NCBI GenBank assembly: GCA_020348445.1
Contig: CP070751.1
Coordinates: 3,089,702 to 3,153,701, forward strand
Reading direction: 5' to 3'
Origin: Thermoplasmata archaeon
GTDB lineage: Archaea > Thermoplasmatota > Thermoplasmata > GCA-020350865
Length of the DNA: 64,000 nucleotides
The position numbers were made by a program, and so were the translations under genes. The notes under the pieces were generated by a model. That model had not been told where the DNA came from and ran no database searches. It was given only the letters and a program-made list of their open reading frames with translations. Of the stretch, positions 3,995-63,479 are shown piece after piece. How positions within the stretch are numbered: position 1 is the stretch's first letter; the number at the start of each line of letters is the position of its first letter.

Positions 3995-5065
3995 TCAATT
4001 GCCATTGTAGTATCTGTAACTGTCCAGTTTTACAGGAGATTTGACTGAGCGTCTCTTCCCTGCAAAATGCAGCCTGACACCTGTTATCGCCACAGCCAAA
4101 ACCAGACCCAGCATATAGAAAATTTGTCCAAAGGAATCTGCTGGTTGGGTCACGATAACAACCATGTGCATGCTGGTTGACTCGCCAGAAGTATCCTTGG
4201 CTGTCACTATTAATATTTCCTCGCCTGTCCAATCATCAGGAACAGTGAGTTTCAACTTCCCATTTTCTTGGTTTATCTCGGTTTTTATTCGGTTGTTGCC
4301 CGAGATTTGATATGTAAGAATATCATTATCGACATCGGTAAAGTAGCCCTTCAAATCCAATGTTTTCTCCTGGTTATTCCCGTTAATACTAATTGAGGTG
4401 AAGCCCGATGCGCAATTAGGGGCGTCGTTCACAGGTACCACGGTGACAAGAATAGTATCTATAATGTCAGCTTCGCCGTCGGAAGCTGTGAACGTTATCT
4501 CCTCGGAGCCGTGCCAGTCTTTGGGAGCCGAGAGATCCACAAGACCACTTTCGTCTATTTGAACGATAATATAATTGCTCGAGCTTGAAAATGAAACTGT
4601 CCCATCTATGTCCATATAATGATTATGGAGGTTTATGGCTTCTTCCAAAACCGTATCCTCATTAAATTCCTGATCAGATAACGACACAAGACGCTCTGGT
4701 GCGTCATTTTTGGGCTCCACTGTCACTAAAATGGTATCGCTGATTTCATGTTCCCCGTCCGATGCTATGAACGTGACTTCATCAGAACCATACCAATTTT
4801 CGGGAGCCGACAAATCCACGCTACCATCCTCGTGGATCGTAACCTCGACCTTATTATCACAGCTTACCCATGAAAAGTGTATTGGGCTCAAATCACTTGA
4901 AAAATGATCGTTAAGGTTTATTTCGCTTGGAGCGATTTGATCCTCCTCCAGGGGTACATCCTCAATTGGCGTGTTAATTATAAGATTGGCTGAGGATGTG
5001 GGAGAGGATGCGAATATCAATATGAGGACCGCAATCGTCACAAGTAACAATCTCGTTATCTTCAA
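3995..5065 (-). CDS. Membrane-anchored protein with three cadherin-like (tandem-95/Big_9-type) repeats
   Basis: Signal peptide, three ~90-aa repeats joined by V.P.NDAP, C-terminal TM helix (IFYMLGLVLAVAITGV) and basic tail. Confidence 0.8.
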   Translation of the reverse strand: MKITRLLLVTIAVLILIFASSPTSSANLIINTPIEDVPLEEDQIAPSEINLNDHFSSDLSPIHFSWVSCDNKVEVTIHEDGSVDLSAPENWYGSDEVTFIASDGEHEISDTILVTVEPKNDAPERLVSLSDQEFNEDTVLEEAINLHNHYMDIDGTVSFSSSSNYIIVQIDESGLVDLSAPKDWHGSEEITFTASDGEADIIDTILVTVVPVNDAPNCASGFTSISINGNNQEKTLDLKGYFTDVDNDILTYQISGNNRIKTEINQENGKLKLTVPDDWTGEEILIVTAKDTSGESTSMHMVVIVTQPADSFGQIFYMLGLVLAVAITGVRLHFAGKRRSVKSPVKLDSYRYYNGN

Positions 5066-5138
5066 AGCTTTTCCTCCAACAAGAAGAAAGGCACCTCTGT
5101 CTCTTCAGTTTCAGAATACTCCTTTTTACTACTTAAGT

Positions 5139-20289: not shown

Positions 20290-20523
20290 TGTCTTACCTC
20301 CCCCCTTGAGATGCAGGTGAATTCTATTTTTCACCTATGGTCAGTTTTTGGAGTATGTACAAAGATTAACATATAAATGGTTTCACATGGATATAAACTT
20401 TGCGGAAAGAAACAGGATTTCCTATATAAATAATATAAAATTTAAATTAAAGGTCATTTGAGAATATTTTTTGGTAACGAAAATGTCCCTTAAAAGCGCC
20501 TAGGAGTTTAAATACCCAAAACC

Positions 20524-40880: not shown

Positions 40881-41720
40881 CTATTCCGTCTTCTTTTCTA
40901 CGATGTGCAAATCCCTTTGTGGATATGGTATTGAGATTCCTTGCCTGTCATATCCCTCTTTTAAGGCCTTCTGAAGATCAAAGAAAACATCCCAGTAGTC
41001 AGCGGTTTTACACCATGGTCTCACAACAAAGACAACTGCGGAGTCCCCCATCTCAGAAACCGCAATTTGGGGAGCGGGATCCTTGATAACCTTGGGATGG
41101 GAGTTTATAATATCCATGGTGGTCTTTACCACTTTGTCCAAATTGTCATCATAGCCCACCCCCACCTCCATATCCACCCTGCGAATTGGATTTCTTGTGA
41201 AGTTGGTAATGTTGGCTCCAAAGACGACCTTGTTCGGGATAATGATGTGCTTATTATCCGGGGTGTCCATTTCAGTTATGCTGACCCCGACACTCTTTAC
41301 CACTCCGCTCTCGCCAGCAATGGTTACGAAGTCTCCTGCGGAAAACGGTTTTGTTATGGCCAACATAAATCCAGCCGCGATATTTCCCAGTGTATCTGAC
41401 ATGGCGAAGCCAAGGACAAAGCCTATGACGATTGCCACACTGGCCATTACAGTTGCCATGATCGCGCCCAGGCCTAAAAATCCAAGGGCTGTGAAAACCA
41501 CGAAGATGTAAAGAAATATTCTCACGAGCCTTGATGTAAATTCAGCTAAAATCTCGGAAGCCTTGGCTCTTAAAAGTGATTTTCTAACGGCTCGACCCAC
41601 GATCTTTACAATTATCACGCCTATTAAAAGCACGATAATAAATACTATCATATTCCAAACGCTGATCCCAATCAAGGGTAGAGATTCCTCTATATTATAT
41701 CCAAATAATTCTATCGCCAC
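40881..41720 (-). CDS. Small-conductance mechanosensitive channel (MscS family)
   Basis: Three TM helices, N.AAG....KPF..GD.V, IIIPN, RRVD..VGVGY, IPYPQRD. Confidence 0.93.
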   Translation of the reverse strand: MAIELFGYNIEESLPLIGISVWNMIVFIIVLLIGVIIVKIVGRAVRKSLLRAKASEILAEFTSRLVRIFLYIFVVFTALGFLGLGAIMATVMASVAIVIGFVLGFAMSDTLGNIAAGFMLAITKPFSAGDFVTIAGESGVVKSVGVSITEMDTPDNKHIIIPNKVVFGANITNFTRNPIRRVDMEVGVGYDDNLDKVVKTTMDIINSHPKVIKDPAPQIAVSEMGDSAVVFVVRPWCKTADYWDVFFDLQKALKEGYDRQGISIPYPQRDLHIVEKKTE

Positions 41721-41826: not shown

Positions 41827-42675
41827 TTATGGCTTCCTCCAAGCCTGTTCCATTTCCTTGATCCATCTGAGCCTTTTATTGAGATTTGCCTCCACTTCCT
41901 CCCTTTTCTTGAAACCCTTCTCGATCAGGGCCAGTCTTTTTATAGCCACAATTATGGCATCCACTGATGGGTCGTTCAGATCTAATCCTGAGGCCTCAAA
42001 TTGTTTTCTCAATATGGGCATTGCATCATCAGGTCTGCCAAATTCCTTGCTAAAATCGGAAATTATTCTGTCAATTAGTTGGGAAAATGCGTTTATTTCT
42101 CCTTCCACTTCCCTGATTTTAACCTGTTTTATGGGAACAGAATCCCTAAATCCGATCATTCTTTTTCCTATTGCATAGAATCCTCTTTTCACATTTTCAC
42201 CACTTTTGGCACTTGTAAAGAAGAACGGCGCCTTGTATTTATCCTTAAATCTCTTCAGTTCTTTTTCACCAAATTGTGCATCCTCCTTAAGATCCCACTT
42301 ATTTGCAAGGACAACAAAAGGGACTTGGCCTACAATGTTTATCACATTTGGGATCCAATAGCTCTCCAAACTCTCTAATGTATCCTTTCTCGTGATATCT
42401 ACAACCAAAAGAACACCCGATGTCCCTGGAAGACTGGATTTATGCAGTTCTAAATATCCTTTTTGTCCTAGAATGTCCCAGATATTGAGTTTGAGATAAT
42501 GTGTATTTGCATCTCTGGTGATCTGTATGTTCCTTGATGTGATTTTAAATCCTACGGTAACCAAATATTTGTCATCGAACTTATCGACTACAAATCTTCT
42601 GATGAGGCTGGTTTTTCCCACTGCACCATCACCGAGGAGGATTACTTTCTTCTTGATTTCTGCTTCACTGTCCAT
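41827..42675 (-). CDS. Rab-like small GTPase with C-terminal helical domain (subtype A)
   Basis: G1 GDGAVGKTS, G2 T, G3 WDILGQ, G4 NKWD, G5 SAK; about 100-aa helical extension. Confidence 0.9.
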   Translation of the reverse strand: MDSEAEIKKKVILLGDGAVGKTSLIRRFVVDKFDDKYLVTVGFKITSRNIQITRDANTHYLKLNIWDILGQKGYLELHKSSLPGTSGVLLVVDITRKDTLESLESYWIPNVINIVGQVPFVVLANKWDLKEDAQFGEKELKRFKDKYKAPFFFTSAKSGENVKRGFYAIGKRMIGFRDSVPIKQVKIREVEGEINAFSQLIDRIISDFSKEFGRPDDAMPILRKQFEASGLDLNDPSVDAIIVAIKRLALIEKGFKKREEVEANLNKRLRWIKEMEQAWRKP

Positions 42676-42724
42676 ATGAACACCATTTTCGTTTGAATAT
42701 TGTTATCAATTCACTATTTCTTCT

Positions 42725-43579
42725 TCATTGGTTTTCAGTTTCCTTGATCCAGTTGAGTCTCCTTACAAGATTTGCCTCTGCAATCTCACTTTTCTTATAA
42801 CTCCCCTCAATCCTTGCCAATCTGTGAACCGCCCTTCTCAAAGCTATTCTTGATGGGGCATTGAGGTCCAGACCTGCGATTTCAAATTGTTTGCGCACCA
42901 GAGGCATAGCCTCTTCTAGATTACCATGATGCTTACAAAAATCATCAATTATTTTATCAATTAACTGGGTAATTTCGCTTTTTTCGCCTTCAAAAAGCAG
43001 ACGTGGATGAATTATCCTGTGTTTGGCGGGCCTAATTGGTTTTCCACCATTGAACTCGATCATTCTTTCTCCTAAAGCATAAAATGCCTGGTTCACATTC
43101 TCTCCATTTTTTGCACTCGTAAAATAGAAAGAAGCATTGTATTTTGACGCAAATTTTTCCAGATGTGTCTCGTCAAATTCGGCATCCTCCATTAGATCGA
43201 ATTTATTGGCCAATATTATCAAAGGTACGTTACCCACCATGTTCTGCACTTTTGGTATCCAATAGGTAGCTAAACTGAACAATGTATTCTTTCGTGTAAT
43301 ATCGGCTACCATCATTACTCCATCTGTACCCCGAAACGTGGAATGATGCAGCTTTGTGTATCCCTTCTGCCCCAAGATATCCCAAATCTGTAGCATTAGG
43401 AATATCGCTTCTTTTTCAACTGTTACCTGTATTGCCTTTCCTGTGACTTTTGTACCTATCGTAATCACATATTTATCATCGTACATGTCCAGTACGAATC
43501 TTCGAATGAGACTGGTTTTTCCAACTGCTCCATCGCCGAGCAAGATTATTTTTTTCTGAATCTCATTCATATTGCTCAT
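42725..43579 (-). CDS. Rab-like small GTPase with C-terminal helical domain (subtype A)
   Basis: GDGAVGKTS, TIG, WDILGQ, NKFD, SAK. Start moved to MSNMN (GGTGG RBS). Confidence 0.9.
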   Translation of the reverse strand: MSNMNEIQKKIILLGDGAVGKTSLIRRFVLDMYDDKYVITIGTKVTGKAIQVTVEKEAIFLMLQIWDILGQKGYTKLHHSTFRGTDGVMMVADITRKNTLFSLATYWIPKVQNMVGNVPLIILANKFDLMEDAEFDETHLEKFASKYNASFYFTSAKNGENVNQAFYALGERMIEFNGGKPIRPAKHRIIHPRLLFEGEKSEITQLIDKIIDDFCKHHGNLEEAMPLVRKQFEIAGLDLNAPSRIALRRAVHRLARIEGSYKKSEIAEANLVRRLNWIKETENQ

Positions 43580-43597
43580 TAACAAACCACCAATAAT

Positions 43598-44449
43598 CTA
43601 CTTTTTTATCTCCTCGATCCATTTGAGCCTCTTTTCGTGGTCCATCTTGGCGTCTTGCCTTTTCTTGAAGCTCATCTCAACAATCGCCAATCTATCAACG
43701 ACTCTTATTAGCGCTTCTAATGATGGATTGTTAAGATCCAACTCTGCAAGTTCGATTTGCCTTCTTATAATCGGCATTGCATCCTCTAAATCGGCATATT
43801 CCTCGCAAAAATCATCTATAATCCTATCGATAAGTCTCGTTATCTCACCTTTTTCACTTCCAAAAAGCAACCGAGGATGGATTATAGTCGGTTTTGCAAT
43901 CATTGTAGGCTCAACACGTTTGGGGCTGATAATATATGCCCCCAGTGTGTGAAATGCTTGTTTAACATTCTCACCACTTTTTGCACTTGATTGGTAGAAG
44001 GGTACCTTGTATCTTGTGGCTAGCTCCTTCAACTCATCCCTTGAAAATTCCGCTTTTTTAAGAAGATCGCACTTATTGGCCAGTATGATAAAAGGAATTT
44101 TCCCAACGATGTTTTGCATCTTAGGGATCCAATATTTTTCCAGGCTATGCAATGTTTCCTTTCTTGTGATGTCCGCCACCATGAAAACACCTGATGTCCC
44201 CCGAAAGCTGGATTTGTGAAGCTTCGAGTAACCTCTCTGTCCCAGAATATCCCATATCTGGAGTTTTAGTTTGATTAACTCATTATCCATTGGAATTTCT
44301 ATTACTTTTGCCGTGGTTTTGGTTCCAATTGTGGCGATATATTTATCGTCGAATCTATCCAAGACGAATCTCCTAATAAGGCTTGTTTTTCCTACTGCGG
44401 CCTCGCCAAGAACAAGCATCTTTTTCATCATATTCTTAACTTTCGTCAT
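43598..44449 (-). CDS. Rab-like small GTPase with C-terminal helical domain (B-like N-terminus, A-like remainder)
   Basis: GEAAVGKTS, YIATIGTKTTAK, KLQIWDILGQ, NKCD, SAK. Start moved to MTKVK. Confidence 0.9.
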   Translation of the reverse strand: MTKVKNMMKKMLVLGEAAVGKTSLIRRFVLDRFDDKYIATIGTKTTAKVIEIPMDNELIKLKLQIWDILGQRGYSKLHKSSFRGTSGVFMVADITRKETLHSLEKYWIPKMQNIVGKIPFIILANKCDLLKKAEFSRDELKELATRYKVPFYQSSAKSGENVKQAFHTLGAYIISPKRVEPTMIAKPTIIHPRLLFGSEKGEITRLIDRIIDDFCEEYADLEDAMPIIRRQIELAELDLNNPSLEALIRVVDRLAIVEMSFKKRQDAKMDHEKRLKWIEEIKK

Positions 44450-44651
44450 TTTCAATACCTTTTTGGTGATTTCTTCCTTTAGTCTGCTATACACCTAAAT
44501 ATGAGTGGACTTTTTTTCCTGCTTTTATTTCCACAATAAGGTGATATATCGGTGCAACAGTCCAATATCGTCTCCTTTTTTCTTTTATCCACCTTATATA
44601 TTCGCGATTAATTTCTAATGTCTCGATATCGATCTATTTTTATTTATCAAC

Positions 44652-45506
44652 TTATGCAATCATTCTAATCAATGATGTATAGGCTTTCTTTTCCTTTGTT
44701 AATCTAGATGCTTCTATTTGATTTGAAGCGGCATCGATTAGTAAGTCTACAACTTTTGAAAGCCCTTCAACAGTGGGAAATGCAAAGTTAACATCTGCCT
44801 TCTTGAACTGTGCCCTTATCATGGACATTGCAATATCCGGATCCTCAAGAAGATCGCAATATCTTGCCATGATTATATCTTCAACTTCCAATGCTGACAG
44901 CCTTCGCCCTGGTGTAAGTTCCACCTCCATTCCCTTCACAAATCCACCGGTGATTTCCGGTAAATGCCCCATTTTTAGTCCACTCCAGGGTGTGACCATC
45001 ATCTTACTTAGGGTCTCAAAGGCTATACTCACATTATCCCCAGTTTTTGCACTTGTGAGAAAATATGGGAAACCATAAATCCTGAGAAGCGCCATAATCT
45101 CATCCTCACTAAGCTCGGCTTCTAAATCGTTTTTATTGGCCAAAACGACCACAGGAATCTCTCCAGCAACTTTATAAAGGGACAATAACCAGGCCTCAAA
45201 TGAAAAAATGGTCTCCTTTCTTGTGATATCTATTACAATGAACGCTCCGTTAGCACCTTTGTAAGTCTTCATCTGAAGCTTGGAAAAGCACCTTAATCCC
45301 TGAATGTCCCAAATCTGAAGCTTCATGCCTACAACTTTCTCATCAATGTTGATTTGCATGGGTTTGGCAGTGGTTTTCGTTCCTATTGTTGCAACATATC
45401 TATCCTCGTACTTGTTGTATACAAATCTTCTAATTAGACTTGTTTTTCCCACTGCTCCCTCGCCAATCACACACATCTTCTTAACCATTTCCTTGGCTTC
45501 GGTCAT
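44652..45506 (-). CDS. Rab-like small GTPase with C-terminal helical domain (subtype B, switch-II Gln replaced by Leu)
   Basis: GEGAVGKTS, KLQIWDIQGL, NKND, SAK. Confidence 0.9.
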   Translation of the reverse strand: MTEAKEMVKKMCVIGEGAVGKTSLIRRFVYNKYEDRYVATIGTKTTAKPMQINIDEKVVGMKLQIWDIQGLRCFSKLQMKTYKGANGAFIVIDITRKETIFSFEAWLLSLYKVAGEIPVVVLANKNDLEAELSEDEIMALLRIYGFPYFLTSAKTGDNVSIAFETLSKMMVTPWSGLKMGHLPEITGGFVKGMEVELTPGRRLSALEVEDIIMARYCDLLEDPDIAMSMIRAQFKKADVNFAFPTVEGLSKVVDLLIDAASNQIEASRLTKEKKAYTSLIRMIA

Positions 45507-45803
45507 TTATATAACCTTCTTTTGACTTCCGATGACTCGTTACAGGGGATTAGACCAAGGGCCATCTGATTTACTTATTGTTAATTTCCCGTGATAATTT
45601 CAATGTGGTCTTCCCACCCTTTTTTCCATTAATTGTCGATATTTCAAATATTGGCTACAATTAATTATAAATCCCATTGGCCATTAAATATTTTTGACGA
45701 TAAAATCAGGTTTGATAATTATGTTGGGTATAAACTGGTATTATTGGGATAAAAAATAAAAAAGGTCACGGGTCTTTATGACCAATATATGCCTATTCGA
45801 ATG

Positions 45804-46637
45804 TTAAAAATCGAAATCCTTTATCCATTTGAGCCTTTTTACGCGATTTGTCTCTGCAATCTCCCATTCCTTGTAACCCTTCTCAATCATAGCCAATCTT
45901 TCAACAGCCAATTTTAAGGTCCCTTTCGATGGTTTGGTAAGGTCTAATTCAGCTAACTCGAATTGTTTTCTTAACAAAGGCATAGCATCTGATATGCTCC
46001 CATATTCCTTACAAAAGTCATCTATTATTTTATCAATGAGATCGGCCATCTCTCCCTTTTCGCTCTCATCCACCTCTGATTTTAAACCTAATGGTGATGC
46101 GGTACGTTTGACTTCGAGCACCCTATTTCCCAGGGCATGGAATGCATCCTTCACGTTTTCTCCATTTTTTGCACTTGTAAAAAAGAAAGGTACCATGAAT
46201 TTGGATGCGAATTTTCTCAGATCTTCCTCTTTAAATTCGGCTCTTTGGATAAGATCTGATTTGTTGGCGAGAATAACAAAGGGAACTGTTCCAACGATGT
46301 TCTTCACCTCTGGTAGCCAATAGCTCCTTATACTTTCCAATGTATCCTTCCTGGTGAGATCTGCCACCATCATAACGCCATCTGTGCCTCTGAAGCTGGA
46401 TTCATGGAGCTTTGTGTACCCTTTTTGCCCCAGTATATCCCATATCTGAAGTTTAAGATAAAATATCTCTTTTTCAGTCTCAATCTGCAAGGCCTTGGCC
46501 GTTACCTTGGAGCCAATGGTGAGGATATATTTATCATCGAACTTGTCCACAACAAATCTCCGAATAAGGCTCGTTTTACCAACGGCCCCATCACCAAGAA
46601 GTATTATTTTTTTCTGGACCTCTTTTACATCTGCCAT
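45804..46637 (-). CDS. Rab-like small GTPase with C-terminal helical domain (subtype A)
   Basis: GDGAVGKTS, KLQIWDILGQ, NKSD, SAK. Confidence 0.9.
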   Translation of the reverse strand: MADVKEVQKKIILLGDGAVGKTSLIRRFVVDKFDDKYILTIGSKVTAKALQIETEKEIFYLKLQIWDILGQKGYTKLHESSFRGTDGVMMVADLTRKDTLESIRSYWLPEVKNIVGTVPFVILANKSDLIQRAEFKEEDLRKFASKFMVPFFFTSAKNGENVKDAFHALGNRVLEVKRTASPLGLKSEVDESEKGEMADLIDKIIDDFCKEYGSISDAMPLLRKQFELAELDLTKPSKGTLKLAVERLAMIEKGYKEWEIAETNRVKRLKWIKDFDF

Positions 46638-46702
46638 GGTTAAACCGCCGAAACTTACATTTTTCCCATTTTCTGATAGTTAACTCATTTTTAGCAATAT
46701 TA

Positions 46703-47590
46703 TTATGCTTTCTCATCGTGCTTAATGGTTTCTTGTTCCTCGATCTTTTTTATCAAACTCAGGTATGTCTTGTATTCTTTGTCTAAACGAGTAGGCTCAA
46801 TACGGGCTACAGCGGCCTTCATTAAAAAATCCACCACCTTGTTAAGCCTTTGGATTGAAGGGTCCATATGAGTCAAACCCGCCCTCCTGAATTGTTCATT
46901 TATTATTGACATGGCAAATTCTGGTTCATCAAACAGATCGCAATATCTTGCCATGATAATGTTCTCCACTTCAGATACGGAGAGGGATCTTCCTGGGTGA
47001 AGCTCTGGTTCTCCATTCATCGTTTTTATTTCTTCCTTCTCTAGCATGGGCATTATATTTTTTTTCTCCCAAGGTTTTACCATCAATTCTCCCAGAGAAT
47101 GGAATGCTTCATTCACATTTTCCCCTGTCTTCGCACTTGTGAAATAACATTGAAATCCATACCTTTTAACATAATTTTTTATTTCACTTTTTTCAAATTC
47201 ACTGATTAAATCGTTCTTATTTGCAAGGACAACAACAGGAATCTCTCCAGTCTCTTTGTATAAGGATAACAGCCAGCTCCCAAGCGAATGCCAGGTACCT
47301 TTCCTCGTTTTGTCCATTACAAAGAACGCACCGTTTGCCCCTTTATACGCTTTTTTCTGAACTTTTGCAAAGCTTCTAAGACCTATGATGTCCCATATCT
47401 GAAGTTTTAAAATGATCTCTTCTTCTTTTGTTGTGATTTTCATCTTTTTTGCAGAGGTTTTAGAACCTATTGTGGCAATGTACCTATCACTAAATGTGTC
47501 AAGAACGAATCTTCTAATGAGGCTCGTTTTCCCTACCGCTGCCTCTCCAATTACACACATCTTCTTCATTACTACCTTTACTTTCGCCAT
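46703..47590 (-). CDS. Rab-like small GTPase with C-terminal helical domain (subtype B, switch-II Gln replaced by Leu)
   Basis: GEAAVGKTS, KLQIWDIIGL, NKND, SAK. Confidence 0.9.
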   Translation of the reverse strand: MAKVKVVMKKMCVIGEAAVGKTSLIRRFVLDTFSDRYIATIGSKTSAKKMKITTKEEEIILKLQIWDIIGLRSFAKVQKKAYKGANGAFFVMDKTRKGTWHSLGSWLLSLYKETGEIPVVVLANKNDLISEFEKSEIKNYVKRYGFQCYFTSAKTGENVNEAFHSLGELMVKPWEKKNIMPMLEKEEIKTMNGEPELHPGRSLSVSEVENIIMARYCDLFDEPEFAMSIINEQFRRAGLTHMDPSIQRLNKVVDFLMKAAVARIEPTRLDKEYKTYLSLIKKIEEQETIKHDEKA

Positions 47591-47796: not shown

Positions 47797-50700
47797 CTAC
47801 AGCTCAGCGAATTGCACACCACACCTGGGACAGCTTGCAGCCTCGGCATCTATATCCTTACCACATACTGGGCATTCGTAAACTTCAATCTCTATGATGT
47901 TTTCTGAATATACTTCTGAGCCATCCTCAAATGCCTCATCCTCTCCGTCTTTCCATTCGTAAAGAGATTCATCAGATTCCTCTGCGTGGGCATCAAGCCG
48001 AGGTTGATCTGGCATATCTTGGGAATCAGTATGTTTGTATCCTCTATCAGGAATTAGAGTCATGGTCAATGCCCTTATGCCCTCTAATTGGGAGATATCA
48101 CCATCCCAATCTTCTAATATGGTGCCATATTCTTTGTTGATATCTTGGAAGAACCTTCTAACACGTTTGCGAAGCTTTCGACCATAACCCTCGAATATAA
48201 CCGCTATATAGAGACATTCCGATCTTTCTATGAGGATCTTGTTTTCACCAAATCCCATCTCATCAAGTTCCCAATCAACATCTGAGGTCTGACCTGAAAA
48301 GGCATCATTAATAAAGTCCTGGACTGCGGTGAACATCCCGCTGACCACCACATCCTCTAAATCCGATCTTTCCCATCGAGAAACGTGGGCTATGGGCAAG
48401 CCATTTTCGTGGATTAAGAACGCATCGTATACAATATAACCGCTCTTTTTCCAGTAAATCGCAATTGCACCGCCAATTGCGGCGATGAGAATTGAAAATA
48501 TCCAAGGCCAGGGAAGTGTATCCCATATAGAGGGGGCTTGGGGTTTTGTACTCTTGATATCTACAATGAAGCTACTTGTAGCCACAAGTTCACCATCGGT
48601 TACTGTGATTGTTATGGTATCGATCTTTATTCCCTCAGGATACTGGAATACCAACATATTGCCGACCAAAGTTACGTAACCTTCACCTGCCGCGCTTTCA
48701 ACGGTGATTATAAGCTCGGACATATCATTATCAATATCATGGATATATTGTGAAAGATCCAATATCCATTGGTCTCCCACTTTCTTTTCCTGCGTTGGTA
48801 TGAGACCTATTGTAGGTGGATCATTTACAGGGACAACCACCACAAGTATACTATCCTCGGCCAAAGCCCCATGCGGGTCTGTCGCCCTGAATGTAATGAC
48901 CTCTGAGCCGTACCAATTTTCAGGTGCACTGAAATCCACGGTTAGATCCTTATTGATCGTTACATTGATGAATTTTGAGCCGTTTGTGTAGTACAGAACA
49001 TCGTTGTCCACATCAAAGAAATAGTCGCTTAATGTAAAGGTCCCATTCAGATTCGTATCCTCATCAAAGAATACATCAGGGATTTTATATCTGAGCTCAG
49101 GTGGAAAATCATCCGAAATTGTGATATTTATCTCCTGGGAAGCTGTCAACAAACCATCGGATACATAAATCGTTATAGGTATTGTGGTGCTGTTCATCCA
49201 TTCAGGATAGGTGATAACTATCCCTAAGTTGTTGTTTTGTTGTAACCTGATGTAATCCGTCAATTCAGAGGTACTTACCATTAATTCATCTGGAGTATTG
49301 TCAGGATCTGAAATATATGGCGATAGGTCAAAAGCATAGGAATAATCGAAATGTACAACCAGGTCAGGTATATCTGATATGGTTGGACCATCATTCACTG
49401 GTATGACTGTAACCCTTATGGTATCCTCTGAAATGGCTCCAATGGGATCCTGTGCTCTAAATGTCACATATTCTGTACCTGTCCATTGTCCCTGGGCTGT
49501 TATGTCCACCGTGTTATTCTGGTTTATATCCACAATGATATGGAAGTAGCCTGATGTGAAGAATAAACTATCATGATCCTTATCAACAAAATAATCGTCC
49601 AGGTCAAAGACATAATAAAGTGTAGTATTTTCTTCGAGAATAACATCTGGTAATTGACTTACAAGCTCAGGAACCCAATCGGAGGTGACATTGACCCTTA
49701 CCATGGTTTGAGTGGTGTCAGTGCCATCAGATAAAGTCAGAGTGACAAGAACGCTTTGGCCAACCATATTCTGTGGGTAGTGGAAGGTCACCTTGAGACC
49801 ATCCACTTCGACATAACCATCTCCTGAGTCTGACGTTGACTCTGATGTTGTGAGGATTAGGTTCTCTATCGGAGTCTCAACATCGTGAACATAGAAAGTG
49901 TAATCCCATGGACTTGGATTATCTTCATCTGTGTTTGGATCATCGTAATGAACAAAGATATCAGGAGGCATGGGATTGAAATAGGGTAGATCATTGAGGG
50001 GTGTAATATTGATCCATAATATCTGGGAATCCCTATCACCGCTGCTATCAACGAGCCATAATGTAACCTCATCATTACCATAGGCATCTGGATGCGGGAT
50101 AAACGTTAATATATTGTTTGTGCTGTTCATGCCTGTAACTGAGTAGAGATCGTTATCTACTCCTGTTAGATGCCAATTTAAATCAGTATCAGAATCCTCT
50201 ATGTCAGACCCATAGGATGTGAGAGCAATTGACCAAGGCAAGCTGTCTTCGGGCTTGATTTGATTGGGAACCTCCCACACTATCATCGGAGGTCTGTTTC
50301 CGGTATCTTGCACCGTCAGTAATCCTTCTATTTCATCGACATTATAATTCGCAGAGCCTTCATATTTTGCCCAAATACCGTAATTTTCAGGGGTTAGATT
50401 GACATAATAATTTATTTGTGCAACACCGCCCAAGGAGGTTGCGGCCATTACGATCTCCTCACTGGGCTCGTAGAATTCGTTTCTATTCCTATCAAGGTAA
50501 AAGACAACTTGCTGATCCCCAATTGGATTACCCATATCGTCTATCAGGGTTGCATTTATTGACGCTGTTTCTCCAACCTCCACAACAGTGATTACAGATT
50601 TAAGAGTGGCCTGTTTTGGATTTATTGTTATTTGTGCTTCGTCATCTTCGATATCGTAATCCCCTGATCCAACATATAACACAGTAAAATTGTAAATACC

Positions 50701-53700
50701 TATGTCCAGATATGAGGAATAAATCACCGATATACTTCCATCAGATTGTGTTACACCCTGATCCACAAACTCTCCTGCTTCAAGAATCCCATTTTTGTTG
50801 ATATCTATATAATAAGCAACATTTTGGCCTTGAATTGGCTGGAAGTCATCATCCAGTAACCTAGAATTGAGCTGTATCGCATCACTGAATTCTACCAAGC
50901 TGTCAATGGCATATAGAATCCCGTGTTTTGGCGAGACATTCGGGCTATTTATCGTTGATGTATCCGGCGCCCACAATCCCATTGAATCGTTGGATGCATA
51001 ATGGAAAGAATAATTGGCTGCAGATAATGTCATGTTATAATAGTATTCCTTACCATCAGTGTAATCAGAATCTGACGTATTTGCCTCCATCATATGAAAA
51101 ACTCCAAGTCCTGTTATGTTTAAGATGATTGCATCAGGTGGATGGTCTTCTAAATCTGTATAGGTGACAGTGAAGTTAAAGATTGTATCAATAGAGCCTG
51201 TTGTTGGATCAACCTGCGCCAAAGATAGTATTGGGGCTCTATTCACAACATCGAATTGCATAACACCGGTTTCAGTCCATTGGCCAACTGAATCGTTAGC
51301 AGTAAAGGAGAACGTATATTGCCCAACGTCAAATCCAGATAGATTGATGTAATATTCCTTGCCATCAGTGTACTCCACATCCAATAGATCCATCTCGATT
51401 AAATCATATATTCCCACCCCGGTAATGTTCACGGTTATAGTATCCTGAGAATGGTTATCAAAGTCAGAATATGTGACTGTAAAATTGAACCACGACTCGA
51501 TATAACCGGTGTTTTGATCCACCATAGCCGCAGATAAAATCGGAGCCCTATTGATAACATCGAACTGTAAGATAGTGCTTTCTGTCCAGTTCCCAAGGGA
51601 ATCATTTGCAGCGAAATTGAAGAAATGAGTTCCAAGTGAAAATCCTGACATATTGTAATAATATCCTTTGCCATCTGTGTAATCGGTATCCAAGAAATCG
51701 GTTTCTTCTAGAATATAAATTCCAATCCCTGAAATATTTACCGTGATTCTACCAGGTGTATGATCATCCAAATCCGTGTATATTACGGTGAAATTGAAAT
51801 CAGAATCCAGATAGCCTAAGGTTGGAGTTACCAAAGGAACTGAAAGGCTTGGCGGCCTGTTAAGCACATTAAATCCCAAAAGACCGGTCTCAACCCAGTC
51901 TCCTTTAGTATCATTTGCCGCGAAATTAAAAGTAAACGATCCTATTGTGAATCCTGAGGCATTGTAATAATATTCCTTACCATCTGTATAATCTGTATCC
52001 AAGGAATCTACTTCCCCGAGATCATAGACACCATAGCCTGTTATGTTCACTGTTATTTTATTTGGAGCTTGATCGTCAAGATCCTGATAAATAATCGAGA
52101 AATTGAAACCAGAGTTGATATTTCCCGAATTGGGTGCAACCTGCGGGGAAGTAAATGTGGGAGGTCTATTTAATATATTGAACTGATTGGTTTCACTGAC
52201 CACGCTGTTACCAATTGAATCATTTGTTTCGAAATAAAATTGATATGTACGAATGGTGAAACCAGAGGTATTGAAGTAATATTCTTTTCCATCTGTGTAA
52301 TCCGAGTCGAATGGATCAACTTCCATAAGATCAAAGGTTCCAAAGCTGGAAATAACCACTGTTATGTTTACTGGTGGTAAATTTGCAGGGCTTGCGTAAT
52401 TTACAGTGAAGTTGAAACCAGTATCTACATTACCGATTAAGGGATTGACAGATGGTAATGTAAGAGAAAGGGCACTGGAGAGTATATCAAAGGAGGAGGA
52501 GCCAGTTTCAACCCAGATTCCATTGGTATCATTTGCTGCAAAGTGGAAGAAATGGGTCCCTAAAGTGAATCCGGACTGATTTAGATAGAATCCATTTCCG
52601 TCGGTATAATCCATATCTAATGGGTCAATTGGAATAAGATCATAATTTCCCCATCCTGTGATATTAACTAAAATATTGTCAGGTTCTAGGTTATTGGGGC
52701 TAGTATATTTTACTGTAAAGTTGAATCCTGTATTGGGATAACCAGAGGACGGGTTGACTGAATCTGAGGAAAGTAATGGGGTCGAGTCAAGAACATCGAA
52801 AAATAACGTTCCTCCTTCAACCCAGTCCCCTATTGTGTCGTTTGCCGCAAAGTGGAATGAATAGGTACCTATGGAAAATCCTGATGTATTGTAGTAGTAT
52901 TCCTTACCATCAGTATAATCTAAATCAAGAGGATCGAGTTCTGATAAATCATAAACACCCTCACCTGAAATATTCACCATTACATTGTAAGGTGCATGGT
53001 CATCCAAATCTGTGTATATCACAGTGAAATTGAATCCTGTATCTGTGTATCCAATAACTGGATCTACCGAAGAAGAAGATAATGTTGGTAACCTGTTAAC
53101 AATCACGAACTGGTAAATAGCAGTATTGGTCCAGTTTCCTATGGTATCATTGGCCCAAATGAGATATTGATAAAGGCCGGGTATTACATACATTGAATTA
53201 TTGTACCATTGGTTGCCAGCTCCTTCTGTCATTGAGGCATTGGTGTAACCGCCATCAGGATATGTAATGTTTAGCCAAACTCCGTATATTCCACTTGGGG
53301 CCGTCACATTGCATGATATGTTAACATATTCATCGATGTACTGACTCTCTGGGGTGGTCAAAATATCTGTAATCTCAAAAGGAATTGATATTGTAAAGGT
53401 CAAAATGTATGTCTTTCCTGCATCGATTCCCCCATCATCGTTTGCTGGTGCACCTACGATTATATCATCTTGGTCATCTCCATTTACATCCCCTGCAAAG
53501 GAAACAGACCAGCCGAAATGATCATTTGCATATTCTCCATAATATTTCCAATCTGCAAGGTTGTCCATGGATGATCCACCACTGAAAACATAAATTGCTC
53601 CAACATCCAATTTGGCACCGTCATCGTAATATGGAGCCCCGACCATAACATCAGCTACTGCGTCCCCGTTTAAGTCTCCTGCGCTTTTCACCGAGAATCC

Positions 53701-56700
53701 GAATCTATCTCCATGATTTTCTCCTGTGAGTTTTAAATCGGATGTGGCATCCATGGAGGACCCACCATTAAAAATATAGGCCCTTCCCACAGTAGGTGGT
53801 TCAAGCTTTTGTATGTAGATATCGATATCAGAAGCACCGTTTCTATCATCTCCCCAACCGACATACATATGTCCATCTGAATCCACATCCAGTCTTGGCA
53901 TTATCTGGTTTGATGATGCTCCCCCTTCGTTCACTTTTATGTCAGAAGAGTCCCATTGTGCTGTGCCTGATGAGTTATATTTTTGGGAATAAATATCTCC
54001 CAACCCATTTCTGTAATCGCTCCAAACAAAAATCGGGTTCCCTTCGGGATCAACATCCACCCAGGGATCCAACTGATGGTAAGTGTCTGAGTTCTGTTTT
54101 GCATCCTTATCAGAGGGACCCCATAGGGCAGTTCCCATTGAATCGAGTCTCTGTGCAAAGGTATCATAATCACCTGCACCGTTTCGGGCGTCCTCCCATA
54201 TAACATATGCATTTCCATCTGAGTCCGTTGCCACTTCGGGACTGTATTGGACTGCACTATCAGAGTTCTGGTTAACAAGTATATCGGTGTTTCCCCATAT
54301 TGCATTACCATCTGGATCAAGCTGCTGTGCATAAATATCCGCAATGTCACCTGGACTGTTTCTTTCGTCAAACCATACATAGATAGAGCTTCCGTTTGGA
54401 TAAACAGCCGCAGAAACCGAAAATTGGTCATAGCTATCTGAATTCTGGTTGATTAATTTGTCATTTAAACCCCATTGTGGTGCTCCATCGGAATCAAGTT
54501 TTTGTGCATATAAATCTCCATCCGACCCGCGCCAATCACCAAAGGCAACAATGACATTGTCGTCTGAGTCAATAGTTGCATCGGGATTGTACTGATCTGC
54601 AATGTCTGAGTTCTGATTTACTTTTTTATCAGAAAGGCCCCATAAAGGAAGCCCATTGGGGTCGAGTTTCTGGGCATAGATATCTGATTCTCCATTTCGT
54701 TTATCTTCCCATACAATAATCGCATTTCCCAAAGAATCGACAACAACAACAGGATCCAACTGATCTACGCTATCCGAGTTTTTATTGACTCTTATATCAG
54801 TTGGGCCCCACAATGCATTACCATCGCTGTCAAACTTTTGGGCATAAATGTCGTAATCATCGCTTCCATTTCTTGTGTCGTGCCAGACAACAATTACATT
54901 TCCATGGTAATCCGCGGCAATAAAGGTTGCGTTCTGATATGCACTATCTGGATTCTGGTTTGCCTGAATGTCTAAAGGACCCCAGGCAGCGGAATAGTTA
55001 CCGTGATTATCATTGTATTCAGGAGCTCCCACAATGACATCATTATATCGGTCATTATTCAGATCCCCAGCATTTGAAACCGAGTAACCGAACTCATCAT
55101 TTGGACTTTCACCTATAAGCATCGTATCGGCATCTGAGGCATTGATAGATGAAGGTAGGTATTCAATGTTAAGGAATACGTAAGCCGCTCCGGTACTGCT
55201 GTTGTTCCCAGGTGCCCCAATGATAATATCGGTTGAGCCATCACCATTTAAATCACCAGCATCAGATACAGCCCATCCAAATCGATCATCTGAATGAGAG
55301 CCAATCATGATTACATCCGCATTTTGAGCTGATATTCCTCCAGTTAATCCAGATCTCCCAGAAAATATGTATGCCCTCCCCTGCTTTCCATTATAACCAT
55401 ATGCGCCAACAATAACATTATCGTAATTATTTACATTAAAAGATTCCTCGTTGCCTAATGTGTAAGAAGAACTAGGATCGTTCTGATTGTTGTATGAAGC
55501 ATCAATCCAGTCCCATGAACGTGCAACATTGGAGATTCTGACTTCATCTATTATACCATCGAATTCTCCCCAACTCCCATTTCCAATTGTCACAGAAGTC
55601 TGTCCAGTCAATTCAACTGCACCCAACAGTATGGTGCTATTTAAACATTCTCCATCCCAATAGATACAAACTCTCTTTGCATTATCATCGTATGTACCCG
55701 CAATATGATGCCACTCTCCAGAGGAAAATGTAATTGTTTCAATCTCACAAAGATAAGCACCCCCATCATCCTGGGAGTCATGAACAACATACATATTGTT
55801 GTTACTATGTTTTGCTATGAAGAATTTCCGCGAAACACCATTATACCATTCTATTACAGTATGGAGAACCCCATCATCCCAATTAAAGTCTGGTTTAATC
55901 CAAGCCATAAAAGTTCTTGAGCCATCCATCGCCATACTTGAGGTTTCAATATAATCATCATCTCCACCGAACTCATCCGCGCCATCTATTCTACCAGTAG
56001 CATCGGTGGTTCCATCACCGCCATCCTGGAAGTTTTTGGGAGTGCCATCGTTATCGTTGCTAGTAGAATCTATGTGGCCTTCCACATCATCATTGGGGCT
56101 CTCTTCCAAATGATGAACCATCTTGTAATTATCATCCCAGACGCTCTCTGGATTCTCCGTGGGAGAGCGCTGAGCGTTGTTACCATAATACATGTAGACG
56201 ACTGTATCGAAGGAGGAAGAAAGATAAGGAATCCTAACCCAAGCCACAAGCTTACCTGAAGAACTATTGTAGCTCTCGATTTCGTGATCTAGCTTTGTTC
56301 TTCCATCTAATTCTGTAAACAAAATATCATTTCCGTTAGGCAGAGCTTTGGATTTTAAATCGGAATCGGTAATCCTGATAAGGAATGGGAAATCTGTAAG
56401 ATTTCCTGCAACTTGTGAAGAGCTGATGGTAATGGGTTTACGATATAGCCAACATGCAGGGTTGAGCTCCTCGGAACCTATCGAATAAAATGTACCTGTA
56501 TCGTTCTGGTTGTTGTACTGAGTAGCGATCCAGTCAATTGAACGAACAACGTTAGAGATTCGGACTTCATCTATTGAACCGTTGAAATATGCACCACTCA
56601 TTCCTATTTTAATTTCATTGGTATTTGAATATATTGTGGTTGAGCCTACTTCCTCAATGTCTTCTAACTCACCATTCACATATACTCTCAAATATCTTCC

Positions 56701-59700
56701 GTCGAATGTGCCTAGAACATGCACCCATTCATCGGCAGTTATGTAAACATCTGATGCATGGGTACCTCCTGTCCAGTCCCCAGTATCGTTGTATATTCCA
56801 AAGCACCATGCATCATCCCAGCCATTCCATCCAAGAAGCCAGGCGCCAGGTTTTTGATTTCCTCCGAACCATTGATTGGGCTCCTCTGTATGATCCTCAT
56901 TACAATTAAACCATCCCTCAACAGTAATAACCTCAGTGATATCCAAGTTCGAGGAATAAGCCACGTCAACATGATCGTCACTACCATCAAACTCATCAGC
57001 ACCATCTATCTTTCCAGAAGCGTTCTGGGTTCCCGGTGAATCGATGTACTCTATTCCATTATTCAAATACTTAGTAGAGTCGTAATGGATTCCAGAGGTT
57101 TCATGAAGGTGTTGAACCATTACATAACTATCATCCCATACTCCCTCGATATTTTCTGTTGGAGAAGTTTGAGCGCTGTTTCCATAATGCATGTAAATTG
57201 TGGTTGTGGAAGATGAGGAAAGGAAGGGAATCCTCACCCATGCTGCCAATTCACCAGAACTGGCATTGTAGCTCTCGATTTCATGATCAAGTCTTGTCCT
57301 TCCATCCTGCTCTGTAAAGACAATATCATAACCGTCGGGTCGAGCTCTGTTTTTAAGGTCCAAATCCACGGTATTCACAAGAATCGGGAAATCAGTTAGG
57401 TCTCCGGTTATTTTGGAAGTATTGAGTGTAATTGCTTTTCTGTACATCCAATTCTGGGGGAAAGATTCTTCGGCACCAACTGTGTAAAATGTACCTGTGT
57501 CGTTTTGGTTGTTGTATTCGGTTGCGACCCAGTGGCTGGAACGGGCAACGCTTGAGATTCTGACTTCATCAATTGTGCCGTTAAAAAGCCATTTAGCTTG
57601 GCCTGATCCAGATTCGTTAAAAGCACCAATCCATCCATTTCCTGTATTTGAAAAATCAACTCCCGAGATGCTGTCATTAAAGGAAAAGTTACCTGCTAAA
57701 TCTCCATTATGATAAACCCTTAATGTTCCATTCGCACCTTCTGTTCTGTCTATAATCCAGCTAATCATATACCAGCTATCTTTTGTAAAATCGATTCCAT
57801 TATCAAGAGAACCTGATGCCCTATATATACTTCCCCCAATCACCGAATAAAATTGCATAGCATCTTCGTCTCTTAATCTAAAGTAAAAACGATTATTATC
57901 ATCTTGTACTTTAGAATAGAGTATATTATCCCAGAATTGGCTATCATCTAATTCCTTTGGATAAATCCATGCGTTTAATGAAAAACCCACGGCATTACCA
58001 ATATTCAAGCTTGTATCATCTCCACAATCAACGTAATCATCATCTCCACCAAACTCATCCGCGCCATCTATTCTACCGGTAGCATCGGTGGTTCCATCAC
58101 CACTATCCTGAAAGTTTTTAGGAGTGCCTTCATTATGATTAATGGTAGAATCATAATGGCCTTCAACATCGTCATCAGGACTTTCTTCTAAATGCTGGAC
58201 CATAACATAATTATCGTCCCAAACACCTGTTGGATTCTCGGTGGAGGAAGATTGGCCTCTGTTTCCGTAATGCAAATATATGATTGTATCCAAAGTGGAC
58301 GAAAGTTCGGGGATCCTTACCCAAGCTGTTAATTCCCCGGTTGTGCCATCATGTTTCTCAATCTCGTGATCAAGTCTAGTCTTACCATCACTTTCAGTGA
58401 AAATGATATCATACCCATCTGTTCTTGCTTTGTTTTTTAGATCTGAGTCGGTAATATCTATAAGAATAGGGAAATCGGTAAGATCTCCAGTTACTTGGGA
58501 AGAATTAATGATGATAGATTTGCGGTATTGCCAATTGGTAGGTATGATTTCCTCATCACCGATTGTGTAAAAAGAGCTTGAATCATTCTGGTTCTTGTAT
58601 GAGGTAGTTATCCAATCCAAAGACCGAGTAATATTTGAAATACGGACTTCATCTATTGAGCCCTTCCACTGATCAGATATTTCAAATCTAACTCCTAAAA
58701 ACAAGTCACTGCCAGCATTTAGTCCCCCGTCTGTCGTCCCAGAATCTTTCACAGCACCATCAACAAATAATACCCAGGAAGAATCATTTGAAGCAAATGT
58801 GATATAACTCCATGCATCCAGAGTAATGGATCCCAGAGCTTCTACTATTTCATCATTGTCAATGCCTGAATTAAATACATGGAGGTTTGTAATGGGATCT
58901 CCAGATTCAAATCTGAAATTACCATTCCCAAATGAAAATGGATTATCCCATGTAGTTCCATCTGAAGCTGTATTGACCCAGAGGGAAAATGTAAGGTTCT
59001 TTTTACTATTCAATGTAGTTCCGATACTATTAATTTTGACGTAATCATCACTCCCATCAAACTCATCAGCACCATCTATCTTTCCAACGGCATCCTGTGT
59101 TCCAGGAGAGTCTATGTACTCGATTCCATCGTAATTATATTGCGTAGAGTCATAATGAGTTCCGGATTTCTCTTGTAAGTGCTGGACCATTACATAATTA
59201 TCATCCCAAACACCCCTTGGATTTGATTGTTCTGGTGCATCCAAGTTGCTGTAATGCATGTAAAAAACCGTGTTTGAGGAGGAACTTAGCAAGGGAATCT
59301 TCACCCAGGCAACCAGTTCACCCATACTGCCATTATAACTTTCTATCTCATGATCGAGCTTGGTAACACCATCTGCACCTGTAAAAACGATATCATAACC
59401 GTCGGAACGCGCCTTGCTTATAAGATCAGAATCAGTAAGGTTTATTAGAACCGGAAAATCTTTCAGATCACCGGCCACTTGAGCGGCGTTGATTGTGATT
59501 CTCTTGCGATACTGCCAACCCGTGGGATTGATTTCTTCTAAACCAACCATATAAAATGAATTTATGCCGTTCTGGTTGTTGTATTCAGTATCGAGCCAGG
59601 CGTTGGATCTAGCAACAGAGGATATACGCACCTCATCTAGAATGCCATCAAGGGGCTTCCAAAGGCTTCCCGGATTGAGCCCAAGGTATATATCCCAATC

Positions 59701-62700
59701 GTTTTCTCGTATTTTACCTGTTTTTGTGGTGTTACCCATTTCAGTTTGGTCAAGGCGCAATCTCATGTAACTACCATCGTAGGTGGCAACTACGAATAAC
59801 CATTTATCTGTGGTCAAGGAACTGTTTGTTTCCATATATGTTGTTGTGCCTGAGTCATCGTTCGTTCCTGTCTTTAACCTGAATCTCAGCTTGTAACCGG
59901 TAATGTTCCATATTGTAGACAACATCCATGCATGATCTTGCTCAGCGTCATTTTTTGCCTTTGATATGATTCTAGCATCGTGTGCAATAAAACTTTCAAA
60001 CATAACCCACGCCTGGAGTGTAAGCCCTTGTCCTTGTACATTCCAATTACCCACATCTATATGGTCTGTTCCGTCATCGTACTCAAAGTCCTGACCATCG
60101 GCTATGATACTGTTGTTATCATCGGATCCTAGGTTCGTTCCATCGTGATTATTGCTTGTGGAATCATAAAAATCATCAGAAAGATGCCAGACAGCTGAAT
60201 AATTGGAATCCCAGACATCTGCAGGATTTTCCATGGATGTTGTTTGTCCATTGTTTCCGTAATACATGTATATGGATGTATCTGAGGATGAAGAAAGGCT
60301 GGGAATTTTAATCCATGCTACCAATTCACCCTGACTGCTGCTATATTTCTCGAGTTCGTGATCGAGTCGAGTACTGCCATCCATCTCGGTGAAGAAGATG
60401 TCATATCCATCGGCTCGTGCCTTGCTTTGTAGATCAGAATCAACAGTATTTATTAGAACTGGGAAATTGACTAGGTCACCAGCAACCTGCGAGGCATTGA
60501 TCGTGATTTTCTTTCGATATAGCCAATCTTCGATATTTATATCGGGGGCATTTACACCCTTTATGCTCGAAACAGAAAATCCGAACCTGTCTCCATCGTT
60601 CTCCCCAGTGAGAATAACATCCGCATCTGCGTCAGCGTCATAAACACTGTTCCAGTCTTCTGTGGATCTACCATGAAAGATATACGCTCTTCCGCGATCT
60701 GCACCCCATCCAGGTGCTCCTATGATCACATCATCATAATCATCATTATTTATATCACCAGCATCGGAAACGGACCAGCCAAATAGATCGCCAGAATTGG
60801 AGCCATATATCGTGACATTTGCATCCGTAATATCGAGTGCACTTGCATTTATTTCTGGATAACCAAAGAAAATGTAGGCTGCGCCTGCCTTATTTATCGC
60901 CCCAGCCCCAGAATCAATCACTTCTTCACCACTATATGTTATGAAACTATCATTCATTGAAAGATATTGGGCGTAAATCCAGTCTTCAGAACGAGCTATA
61001 TTTGATATGCGGACTTCATCTATTGTACCGTTCCAATATACATCTCCACCAGAAGCACCTCCAGGCCTACCTATCCAAAGGTTTTTACTTGGATTAGGAT
61101 TTATTGATCCACCAAAATCACAATCAGCCCTCTTCACTCCATCTACATACATAGAACCATTAGGAGAATCCCAAGTAAAAACAACATGATGCCAAGTATT
61201 TGGATTAATTACATATGTATTACTACAAAGACTTTCATTATATGTCGAACTATTTCGAAGGTAAGCTGATGCAGTGCCTATATTATTTGTATGTCTATAA
61301 ACAATTAGGCCATAACCTCCTGTTAAACGATTGTATTTGTTTATCACATTATATCTCTTGATTTGCGTTGGGAAATTACCATATATCCAAGCTTCCATTG
61401 TTATCTCAGTCCCAGTAATATTCAAACTCGCATCATTCCCACAATCAATATAATCATCGATCCCATCCAACTCGTCAGCACCATCTATTTTTCCAGTAGC
61501 ATCCTGCGTCCCAGGAGAATCTATATACTCTGTTCCATCGTTATCATATTGTGTTGAATCATAATGAGTTCCCGAGGTCTCTTCTAAATGCTGAACCAAC
61601 ACATAACTAGCATCATAAGTCTCATTCTCATTTTGAACATCTAAAGCGGCTGAGTTATTGTAATACATCCAGATGTAATCGGTAGAGGTGTCCCCGGCAA
61701 TATTTGTTACATTTACCCAGACATAACTGTCCCCAGAGGTATTCCACTCTTCGATATGATAATTCAACTCAGTTACATTATCAGTATCTACAAACCGCAG
61801 GTCTGTTCCATCCAATTTAGCCTTTGAATAATTAAAATTCGCTGGATTTAACTTCACAGAAACCGGAAAATACTCTAGATCTTCTGATTGCCCGCCGTTG
61901 TCAAAGGTCAATTTCATTCGACATGACCAATTGATATCCCACCAATCGCTTTCTTCTTCGCTTCCGTATGTAATAAAGCTGTTATTCATGGAAAGGTACT
62001 GCGCCATAACCCAGTCCGCACTTCTTCCTGTATTCGAGATTCGCACTTCATCTATTATGCCCTCAAAGGCGTCGTAATAGGTACCGTCTCCGATCCATAC
62101 CTCAGTTGCTGATTGATATATTGGCCCGGAAAATGTGTCGTTGGTTCCTATCACAATTGCATTTTTATACAATACCATTGTGGTTCCATTCCACGTTCCT
62201 GCCATGTACTGCCACTGGTTTTTATCCACAACATTGGAGTCATGTATATTTCCTTGCGTCGCAGTTCCGTTGTCACTAAGCTTAAAATCCCAATCATCGA
62301 GATCCCCCGGATCATCGTCCATTGAAAGAATATAGGACCTGGCACTATCTGCAAACTTGTTAACGATATTCAGATCATCACCAGGATTATCGATATTAAC
62401 TGGCTTAACCCATGCTTCAATGGTTATAGCCTGGGTAATGTTCAGACTGTCACTTGTTTTGCAGTTCACATAATCGTCGACTCCATCGAAATTGTCGGCA
62501 CCACCGATTCTTCCCTGTGCATTCTGGGTTAATCCGTTTTGGGGGAAACCGTCATTGTTGTTTTTCGAGGCATCATAATGGGTTCCCGAGGTCTCGTTCA
62601 GATGCCATACCCCTGAAAAGTGCTCATCGTAAGTCCCTTCTACATCCTGGACATCAACGGCATCTAAATTGCCGTAATACATCCAGATATAATCCGAATC

Positions 62701-63249: not shown

Positions 63250-63479
63250 TTTACGGCCTCGACCATCTAAATGCCCTGATGGGAGTTTAGACACATTTAC
63301 AAGTATTTGATATCCTTGACCCGCATAAGGACACATTTACCCATGCCCTTGTATTCTTTATTTTATAACTATGTACATTATACGAATCTAACAGTAATTA
63401 AATGGTTTTGACAAGAAAATCAGATTTGATTACCTAATCTGAGAAAAACGGCATTTGATGGGAAAATCCCTCCTTTCCC

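Follow-up and report, generated by a model that had tools for sequence, protein, structure and literature searches.

Ras-superfamily GTPases that lack the catalytic Gln of switch II are already well known in eukaryotes and bacteria. Rap1, for example, carries Thr61 instead of this Gln and is switched off in trans by the Asn thumb of RapGAP. Here we describe a new archaeal example, a clade of Rab-like GTPases represented by two genes, B1 and B2, in a 64,000-nucleotide stretch of contig CP070751.1 of a Thermoplasmata archaeon (assembly GCA_020348445.1, positions 3,089,702 to 3,153,701; hereafter the window, whose first letter is position 1 of the coordinates given below). Both genes lie in a six-gene array (41827-47590) together with four Gln-bearing paralogs, A1 to A4. 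Like Rap1, the B proteins belong to the Ras family and are devoid of the Gln; unlike B, Rap1 is eukaryotic, and no RapGAP-like gene was identified here.

Human Rab25 (2oil, 3tso) shares with B a Rab-type G domain and a natural Leu at the site of the switch-II Gln (WDTAGLE), and it is reported to retain GTPase activity (PMC3039820, citing Casanova 1999). It differs from B in being eukaryotic, in forming a single lineage and not a paralog array, and in having no C-terminal helical domain. A hydrophobic residue also replaces the catalytic Gln in the HAS-GTPases (MnmE, YqeH, FeoB, Era, EngA and RbgA), where other elements catalyse; in MnmE, Leu274 stands at the Gln position and Glu282, in the first turn of helix alpha2, positions the water (PMC2848588). 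Unlike B, however, these proteins are members of other GTPase classes and typically rely on K+, with a P-loop Asn (N226 in MnmE) and a switch-I K-loop.

The bacterial Rup group 1 GTPases are, like B, prokaryotic proteins with Ras-like G1-G5 motifs and no G3 Gln; they are encoded in a four-gene neighbourhood (coiled-coil, OmpA-domain, and GGDEF/EAL or histidine kinase proteins), and a Gln supplied in trans by a neighbouring signalling protein has been proposed for them (Wuichet and Sogaard-Andersen 2014, PMC4316618). Unlike B, they have neither a four-helix C-terminal domain nor a longin-tailed giant receptor, and the B neighbourhood, made up of paralogous GTPases, a giant LamG/FG-GAP protein, an MscS-type channel and aspartyl-tRNA synthetase (AspRS), is not the Rup-type four-gene set. 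The Thorarchaeota Rab 7ezb resembles B in being archaeal, in its Rab-like G domain and in lacking a prenylation Cys (archaeal Rab-like GTPases: PMC4915359), but it belongs to an Asgard archaeon, keeps the catalytic Gln (WDLAGQ) and has no C-terminal four-helix domain. Finally, the Rag/Ragulator system parallels this locus in its paired paralogs, C-terminal extension and longin/roadblock partners at the membrane. The Rag C-terminal domains, however, are roadblock domains, whereas those of B are predicted to be four-helix domains, and both Rags keep their catalytic machinery.

Results

B1 and B2 (Table 1) are well above the Pfam Ras (PF00071) cut-off of 21.6 bits (B1, 110.2 bits, E=9.9e-32; B2, 104.5 bits, E=5.6e-30), as are all six array proteins. 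By both sequence and fold, the nearest solved relatives of the B proteins are Rabs, the top matches being the Thorarchaeota Rab, Sec4, Rab7, Rab1 and Rab8. The closest of them in sequence is 7ezb (E=1.8e-25), and the matches of B1 to solved structures also include Rab25 (E about 3e-22). Residues 66-71 of B1 read WDIQGL (codons TGG GAC ATT CAG GGA TTA) and switch II of B2 reads WDIIGL. In HMMER alignments, Leu71 stands opposite the catalytic Gln of the Thorarchaeota Rab and of Sec4 (WDTAGQ), i.e. at the Ras Q61/Rab Q67 position, while all four A paralogs read WDILGQ. A preliminary description of this DNA had pointed to the two Leu codons, to their place in switch II and to the Gln of the A subtype, and all of this was borne out, the codons both by the open reading frames (ORFs) and by contigs from a second sample.

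A Gln codon is two base changes away from either Leu codon, and the Leu codons of B1 and B2 differ from each other. Both are covered without differences by the second-sample contigs, the one over the B2 codon stopping two bases past it; therefore, an assembly slip is ruled out. Cross-matching of paralogous genes accounts for the additional joints and variant letters around 46400-46600, which do not represent variation in the genes described here.

We found 1131 relatives in a search of 5.8 billion proteins, and used the best 120 for the conservation counts. All 120 belong to the B family, are 52-73% identical and come from Thermoplasmata and Methanomassiliicoccales assemblies and from metagenomes. 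At the Gln position, 49 have Gln, 49 Leu, six Val, five Ala, five Ser, three Met, two Arg and one Thr, which leaves 71 Gln-less proteins, with Leu, Val, Ala or Met in 63/71 and Ser, Thr or Arg in 8/71. On the trees, all 49 sequences with Gln group into a single clade. Since two state changes are needed on the maximum-likelihood tree inferred with this column removed, and a forced single Gln-less clade is not rejected (approximately unbiased test, p=0.32), the Gln was lost once or twice. On these trees the loss is old and common to the whole Gln-less clade.

The preliminary description had made its reading depend on conservation of the Leu among orthologs, and this holds for one of the two genes. 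In the B2 clade (n=49), Leu is found in 48/49, and it is retained at the place of B2 in syntenic arrays. B1 falls instead into a well-supported six-member group that has Val in four members and Ala in one, besides its own Leu; this group is nested in a clade of 9-12 members whose other branch has Ser, and the gene at the place of B1 in two syntenic arrays likewise encodes Val or Ala. With Val, Ala or Ser in the nearest relatives, Leu as a selected residue is rejected for B1 and holds for the B2 clade only. In this alignment the conserved trait is the absence of Gln, not the presence of Leu. In the Gln-less set, position 71 ranks 47th in variability among 172 G-domain sites, with an entropy of 1.63 bits versus 0 bits in the Gln clade, a pattern that is in keeping with release from a catalytic role.

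It had also been suggested that the shifted Gln of the DIQG motif of B1 could be compensatory. This Gln is present in 1/124 aligned sequences, that of B1 itself; the clade has Leu (46), Ile (18) or Val (2) at this position, and the nearest relatives of B1 have Leu or Met, so that a conserved role finds no support.

The nucleotide-binding motifs have not followed the Gln. G1 (GxxxxGKT), Thr40 of G2, DxxG of G3 (Asp67 and Gly70) and NKxD of G4 are invariant in 71/71 Gln-less proteins, and G5 consists of Ser152 (71/71) and Ala153 (70/71) followed by Lys or Arg; degeneration of G1, G4 or G5 of the pseudoGTPase type is not seen in any of the 71. Judging from these motifs, Gln-less B proteins very likely still bind GTP. 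Two positions vary along with the loss of the Gln, Gln78 (see Discussion) and Arg36. Arg36, four residues upstream of Thr40, is present in 60/71 Gln-less proteins versus Lys in others. The cis arginine of G-alpha subunits lies three residues upstream of the switch-I Thr, a spacing that Arg36 does not match. An intrinsic Arg of the MglA type, beside the G2 Thr, was rejected, since the residue preceding Thr40 is mostly Ala or Ser (65/71).

B genes, with or without Gln, are invariably found in arrays with A genes. Because Gln-bearing B genes are also always alongside A, the association of A and B is older than the loss of the Gln. Gln-less B genes occur in 4/5 species representatives of the genus, always arrayed with A genes. 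A Joint Genome Institute (JGI) metagenome contig (L001) repeats the succession of giant DUF2341/LamG/FG-GAP protein, B2(L), A, B1(V), A, A, MscS and AspRS. Other assemblies carry related arrays, and across this recurring order the place of B1 holds Val or Leu. Arrays of the orders B-A-B-A-A-A, B-A-A-B-A-A-A and BQ-A-B-B-A-A-B were seen. Strict 1:1 alternation of B and A is rejected, as order and ratio differ between arrays. In the window, A1 is followed by the MscS-type channel gene (40881-41720) and then by AspRS, likewise in related genomes.

Table 1. Features of the GTPase array and its surroundings. Positions refer to the window, except for those on the contig of the whole genome, marked G000:C1.
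Feature	Position	Strand	Source
B1, Rab-like GTPase, 284 aa, G domain and C-terminal four-helix domain	44652-45506	-	ORF, Pfam, AlphaFold2
B1 Leu71 codon (TTA), catalytic-Gln position	45294-45296	-	
B1 Gln69 codon (CAG), shifted Gln of DIQG	45300-45302	-	
B1 Gln78 codon, position +7, first turn of helix alpha2	45273-45275	-	
B1 C-terminal four-helix domain, residues ~205-281 (also bounded as 196-284, 44655-44921)	44664-44894	-	
B2, Rab-like GTPase, 295 aa, architecture as B1	46703-47590	-	ORF, Pfam
B2 Leu71 codon (CTT), catalytic-Gln position	47378-47380	-	
A4, Gln-bearing (WDILGQ), 65 bp downstream of B2, between B2 and B1	45804-46637	-	
A3, Gln-bearing (WDILGQ), downstream of B1	43598-44494	-	
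A2, Gln-bearing (WDILGQ)	42725-43585	-	
A1, Gln-bearing (WDILGQ), last gene of the array	41827-42675	-	
Giant surface protein, 5179 aa, directly upstream of B2	47797-63336	-	
Predicted longin/roadblock-type tail domain of the giant protein, residues ~4963-5099	48040-48450	-	AlphaFold2, Foldseek
Arg-bearing paralogs	G000:C1 18228-19145, 22786-23700, 5009760-5010638, 5073489-5074406, 5074524-5075462, 5085029-5085916		

The giant surface protein encoded next to B2 spans the membrane with a single segment and has a tail on the cytoplasmic side; its orthologue on L001 contains DUF2341, Laminin_G_3 and FG-GAP domains. AlphaFold2 predicts for the tail the order strand-strand-helix-strand-strand-strand-helix (predicted local distance difference test score, pLDDT, 78.7), and Foldseek matches the model to AP sigma subunits, Sec22b, VAMP7, Mon1/Ccz1, LAMTOR and MglB with template modelling (TM) scores of 0.5-0.63. 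No Pfam family is above threshold in the tail, with weak matches to Robl_LC7 in 3/21 copies (best E 0.006) and to Fuz_longin_1 in 1/21. These 21 copies are all those of the genome and lie chiefly at the ends of giant proteins. Six of them are within 15 kb of GTPase loci, versus about two expected under random placement (p about 0.006). Longin/roadblock domains are established platforms for the guanine nucleotide exchange factors (GEFs) and GTPase-activating proteins (GAPs) of small GTPases (PMC3747258), and the tail is a candidate for such a role, as a platform on which the GTPases might dock or be regulated. Two further copies lie in the window: one with 33% identity at 19174-19554 (minus strand), inside a 1178-aa protein (ORF 16798-20334), and one with 65% identity from position 63948 onward, in a 2378-aa protein whose gene continues past the end of the window. 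A literature search on GTPase/longin systems of Thermoplasmatota found nothing specific.

No prenylatable C-terminal Cys was found in either B protein, B1 ending in ...IRMIA and B2 in ...HDEKA; the hypervariable tail is replaced by a folded four-helix domain. In the AlphaFold2 model of B1 (mean pLDDT 77.6), its helices span residues 205-220, 223-236, 246-260 and 266-281. No Pfam family is over threshold for this domain in B1, and Foldseek with the full-length B1 model returned matches to the G domain only. In an Atlas structure search, we observed that the domain also occurs as a stand-alone unit in 79-aa archaeal proteins and in bacterial DUF8082 proteins. Other look-alikes form the N-terminal part of bacterial HATPase_c proteins, with Myxococcota as the commonest phylum.

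The genome, a single contig of 5.16 Mb, encodes 36 Ras-like GTPases, and the G3 motif can be read in 34 of them. Among these 34, the Gln position holds Leu in two, Arg in six, Ser, Asp and Lys in one each, and Gln in the remainder; thus, departure from Gln is common in this expansion. We note that 36 Ras-like genes are unusually many for a Thermoplasmata archaeon and that about 20 of them are long-form genes with the four-helix C-terminal domain. Ser, Asp or Lys is carried by three short-form GTPases, and Arg (WD..GR) by six further long-form paralogs outside the window. Several of the Arg-bearing paralogs are a few kb from proteins of about 940-990 aa with the same longin-like tail (G000:C1 25837-26211, 5079723-5080082 and 5082538-5082912).

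Some additional observations concern the array itself. A3 resembles B in its P-loop and switch I (GEAAVGKT, YIATIGTKTTAK) but A in its switch II and C-terminus; on the trees it branches as the sister of A1, A2 and A4. A T-rich run is found just past the A4 stop codon (window 45745-45800, minus strand), and TATA-like AT-rich motifs are found in the 200-300-bp gaps preceding B2, B1 and A3. These signals suggest that B2-A4 may form one transcription unit and B1(-A3-A2-A1) another. The same genome contains another small array elsewhere (G000:C1 3703370-3706219), in which an A gene lies between two B genes that have Gln (one Gln-bearing B paralog spans 3703370-3704251), and a 3613-aa longin-tailed protein is encoded about 10 kb from it. 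Its B genes could serve as natural Gln-bearing controls for the family.

Discussion

Our results describe a group of archaeal GTPases without the switch-II Gln. We propose that they form an old clade within a Thermoplasmata Rab-like family whose members combine a G domain with a four-helix C-terminal domain of roughly 80 residues. This clade would have dropped the Gln while retaining all motifs that bind nucleotide and Mg; the position would then have drifted among hydrophobic or small residues (Leu, Val, Ala, Ser, Met), with no selection for Leu itself. The B proteins would then bind GTP and hydrolyse it slowly on their own, which would give a long-lived GTP state, and they would be switched off by a partner and not by their own glutamine. 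The likeliest partners would be those encoded alongside, namely the Gln-bearing A paralogs and/or the longin-like tail of the giant protein. Taken together, A, B and the tailed giant protein may constitute a receptor-coupled GTPase module.

What the analysis shows is the substitution with its age and variability, the intact G motifs, the synteny and the predicted longin-type fold; slow hydrolysis, partner dependence and receptor coupling are inferred. Since B is always arrayed with Gln-bearing A, a partner-dependent mechanism is reasonable, and the trans supply of the missing residue already proposed for the Gln-less Rup GTPases (PMC4316618) counts in its favour. Several observations weigh against this proposal. 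Rab25 shares the natural Leu and is reported to keep its activity (PMC3039820), so the intrinsic hydrolysis of B may not be low. The enrichment of the tail near GTPase loci is modest, and its 21 copies show no invariant Arg, Gln or Asn finger, the only invariant residues being G88, W115 and G117. Moreover, the variable A:B ratio and order between arrays argue against a strict 1:1 pair. Considering all of this, our preferred reading, which we regard as evenly balanced, is that B binds GTP, hydrolyses it slowly when alone and is controlled by the neighbouring A paralogs and/or the longin-like tail. A further step would be the formation of receptor-coupled A+B hetero-oligomers, in which a long-lived GTP-bound B would be combined with a hydrolysing A and docked on the longin-like tail. 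We consider this improbable; if true, such hetero-oligomers would represent a Rag/Ragulator-like or septin-like logic in a non-Asgard archaeon.

Alternatively, the B proteins could be ordinary hydrolysis-competent switches that use another cis residue, by analogy with MnmE, a possibility that we find doubtful. The candidate residue would be Gln78. It is present in 71/71 Gln-less proteins, whereas Gln-bearing B proteins have Lys (35), Asn (8) or Gln (5) and A proteins have His, and the AlphaFold2 model of B1 places it within helix 75-82, in the first turn of alpha2. A precedent would be offered by L274/E282 of MnmE and, more broadly, by the HAS-GTPase concept (PMC2848588), and the activity reported for Rab25 (PMC3039820) also points this way. 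However, His or Gln at +7 is frequent in other long-form paralogs of the genome that retain the catalytic Gln (His in the A types, Gln in several others), and for this reason Gln78 looks ancestral and not compensatory. In addition, its correlation with the loss of the Gln is based on one or two evolutionary transitions only. The K+-dependent HAS mechanism was rejected for B: the P-loop reads GEAAVGKT or GEGAVGKT, without Asn at its fourth position, and there is no K-loop and no GTTRD-like motif. We keep Gln78 as a weak candidate for a relocated catalytic residue.

The preliminary description offered two possibilities, that the B proteins are GTP-locked scaffolds or sensors, or that an A partner supplies a catalytic residue in trans. 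A GTP-locked state is not inferable from sequence, given that the HAS-GTPases hydrolyse GTP regardless (PMC2848588) and Rab25 is reported to do so too (PMC3039820), and a Q61L-like sequence alone should not be taken as proof of constitutive activity. In its strongest form, this idea would make B a permanently GTP-bound scaffold that never hydrolyses, as might be compared with the SEPT6-group septins or alpha-tubulin in their hetero-oligomers. We judge this unlikely. Switch I is less conserved in the Gln-less set than in the Gln-bearing clade (0.73 vs 0.27 bits), and the Leu-bearing Rab25 is reported to be active (PMC3039820). A scaffold would nevertheless agree with the absence of the Gln from all 71 proteins and with the lack of any reversion to Gln within the Gln-less groups. 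It would also agree with the stronger conservation of the P-loop compared with the Gln-bearing sisters (entropy 0.16 vs 0.56 bits) and with the constant presence of Gln-bearing paralogs alongside. These features must be read with the caveat that a scaffold and a slow or partner-assisted hydrolase look the same in sequence.

Finally, a highly duplicated array, 36 Ras-like genes and a variable position 71 might suggest the neutral decay of redundant duplicates on their way to pseudogenes, but this is highly improbable, since the ORFs are intact, synteny is preserved between species of the genus, and the G motifs are invariant across 71 sequences of about 60% mean pairwise identity; therefore, these are neither decaying duplicates nor pseudoGTPases lacking nucleotide binding.

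The natural loss of the catalytic Gln is a recurring route by which small GTPases alter their timing or cede control to a partner. The family described here provides a clean comparison set within one genus, comprising Gln-bearing A, Gln-bearing B and Gln-less B proteins, and the genes adjoin a candidate longin-type regulator attached to a surface receptor. Hence, this system could reveal whether prokaryotic Rab-like arrays use pairs of active and inactive subunits, as eukaryotes do.

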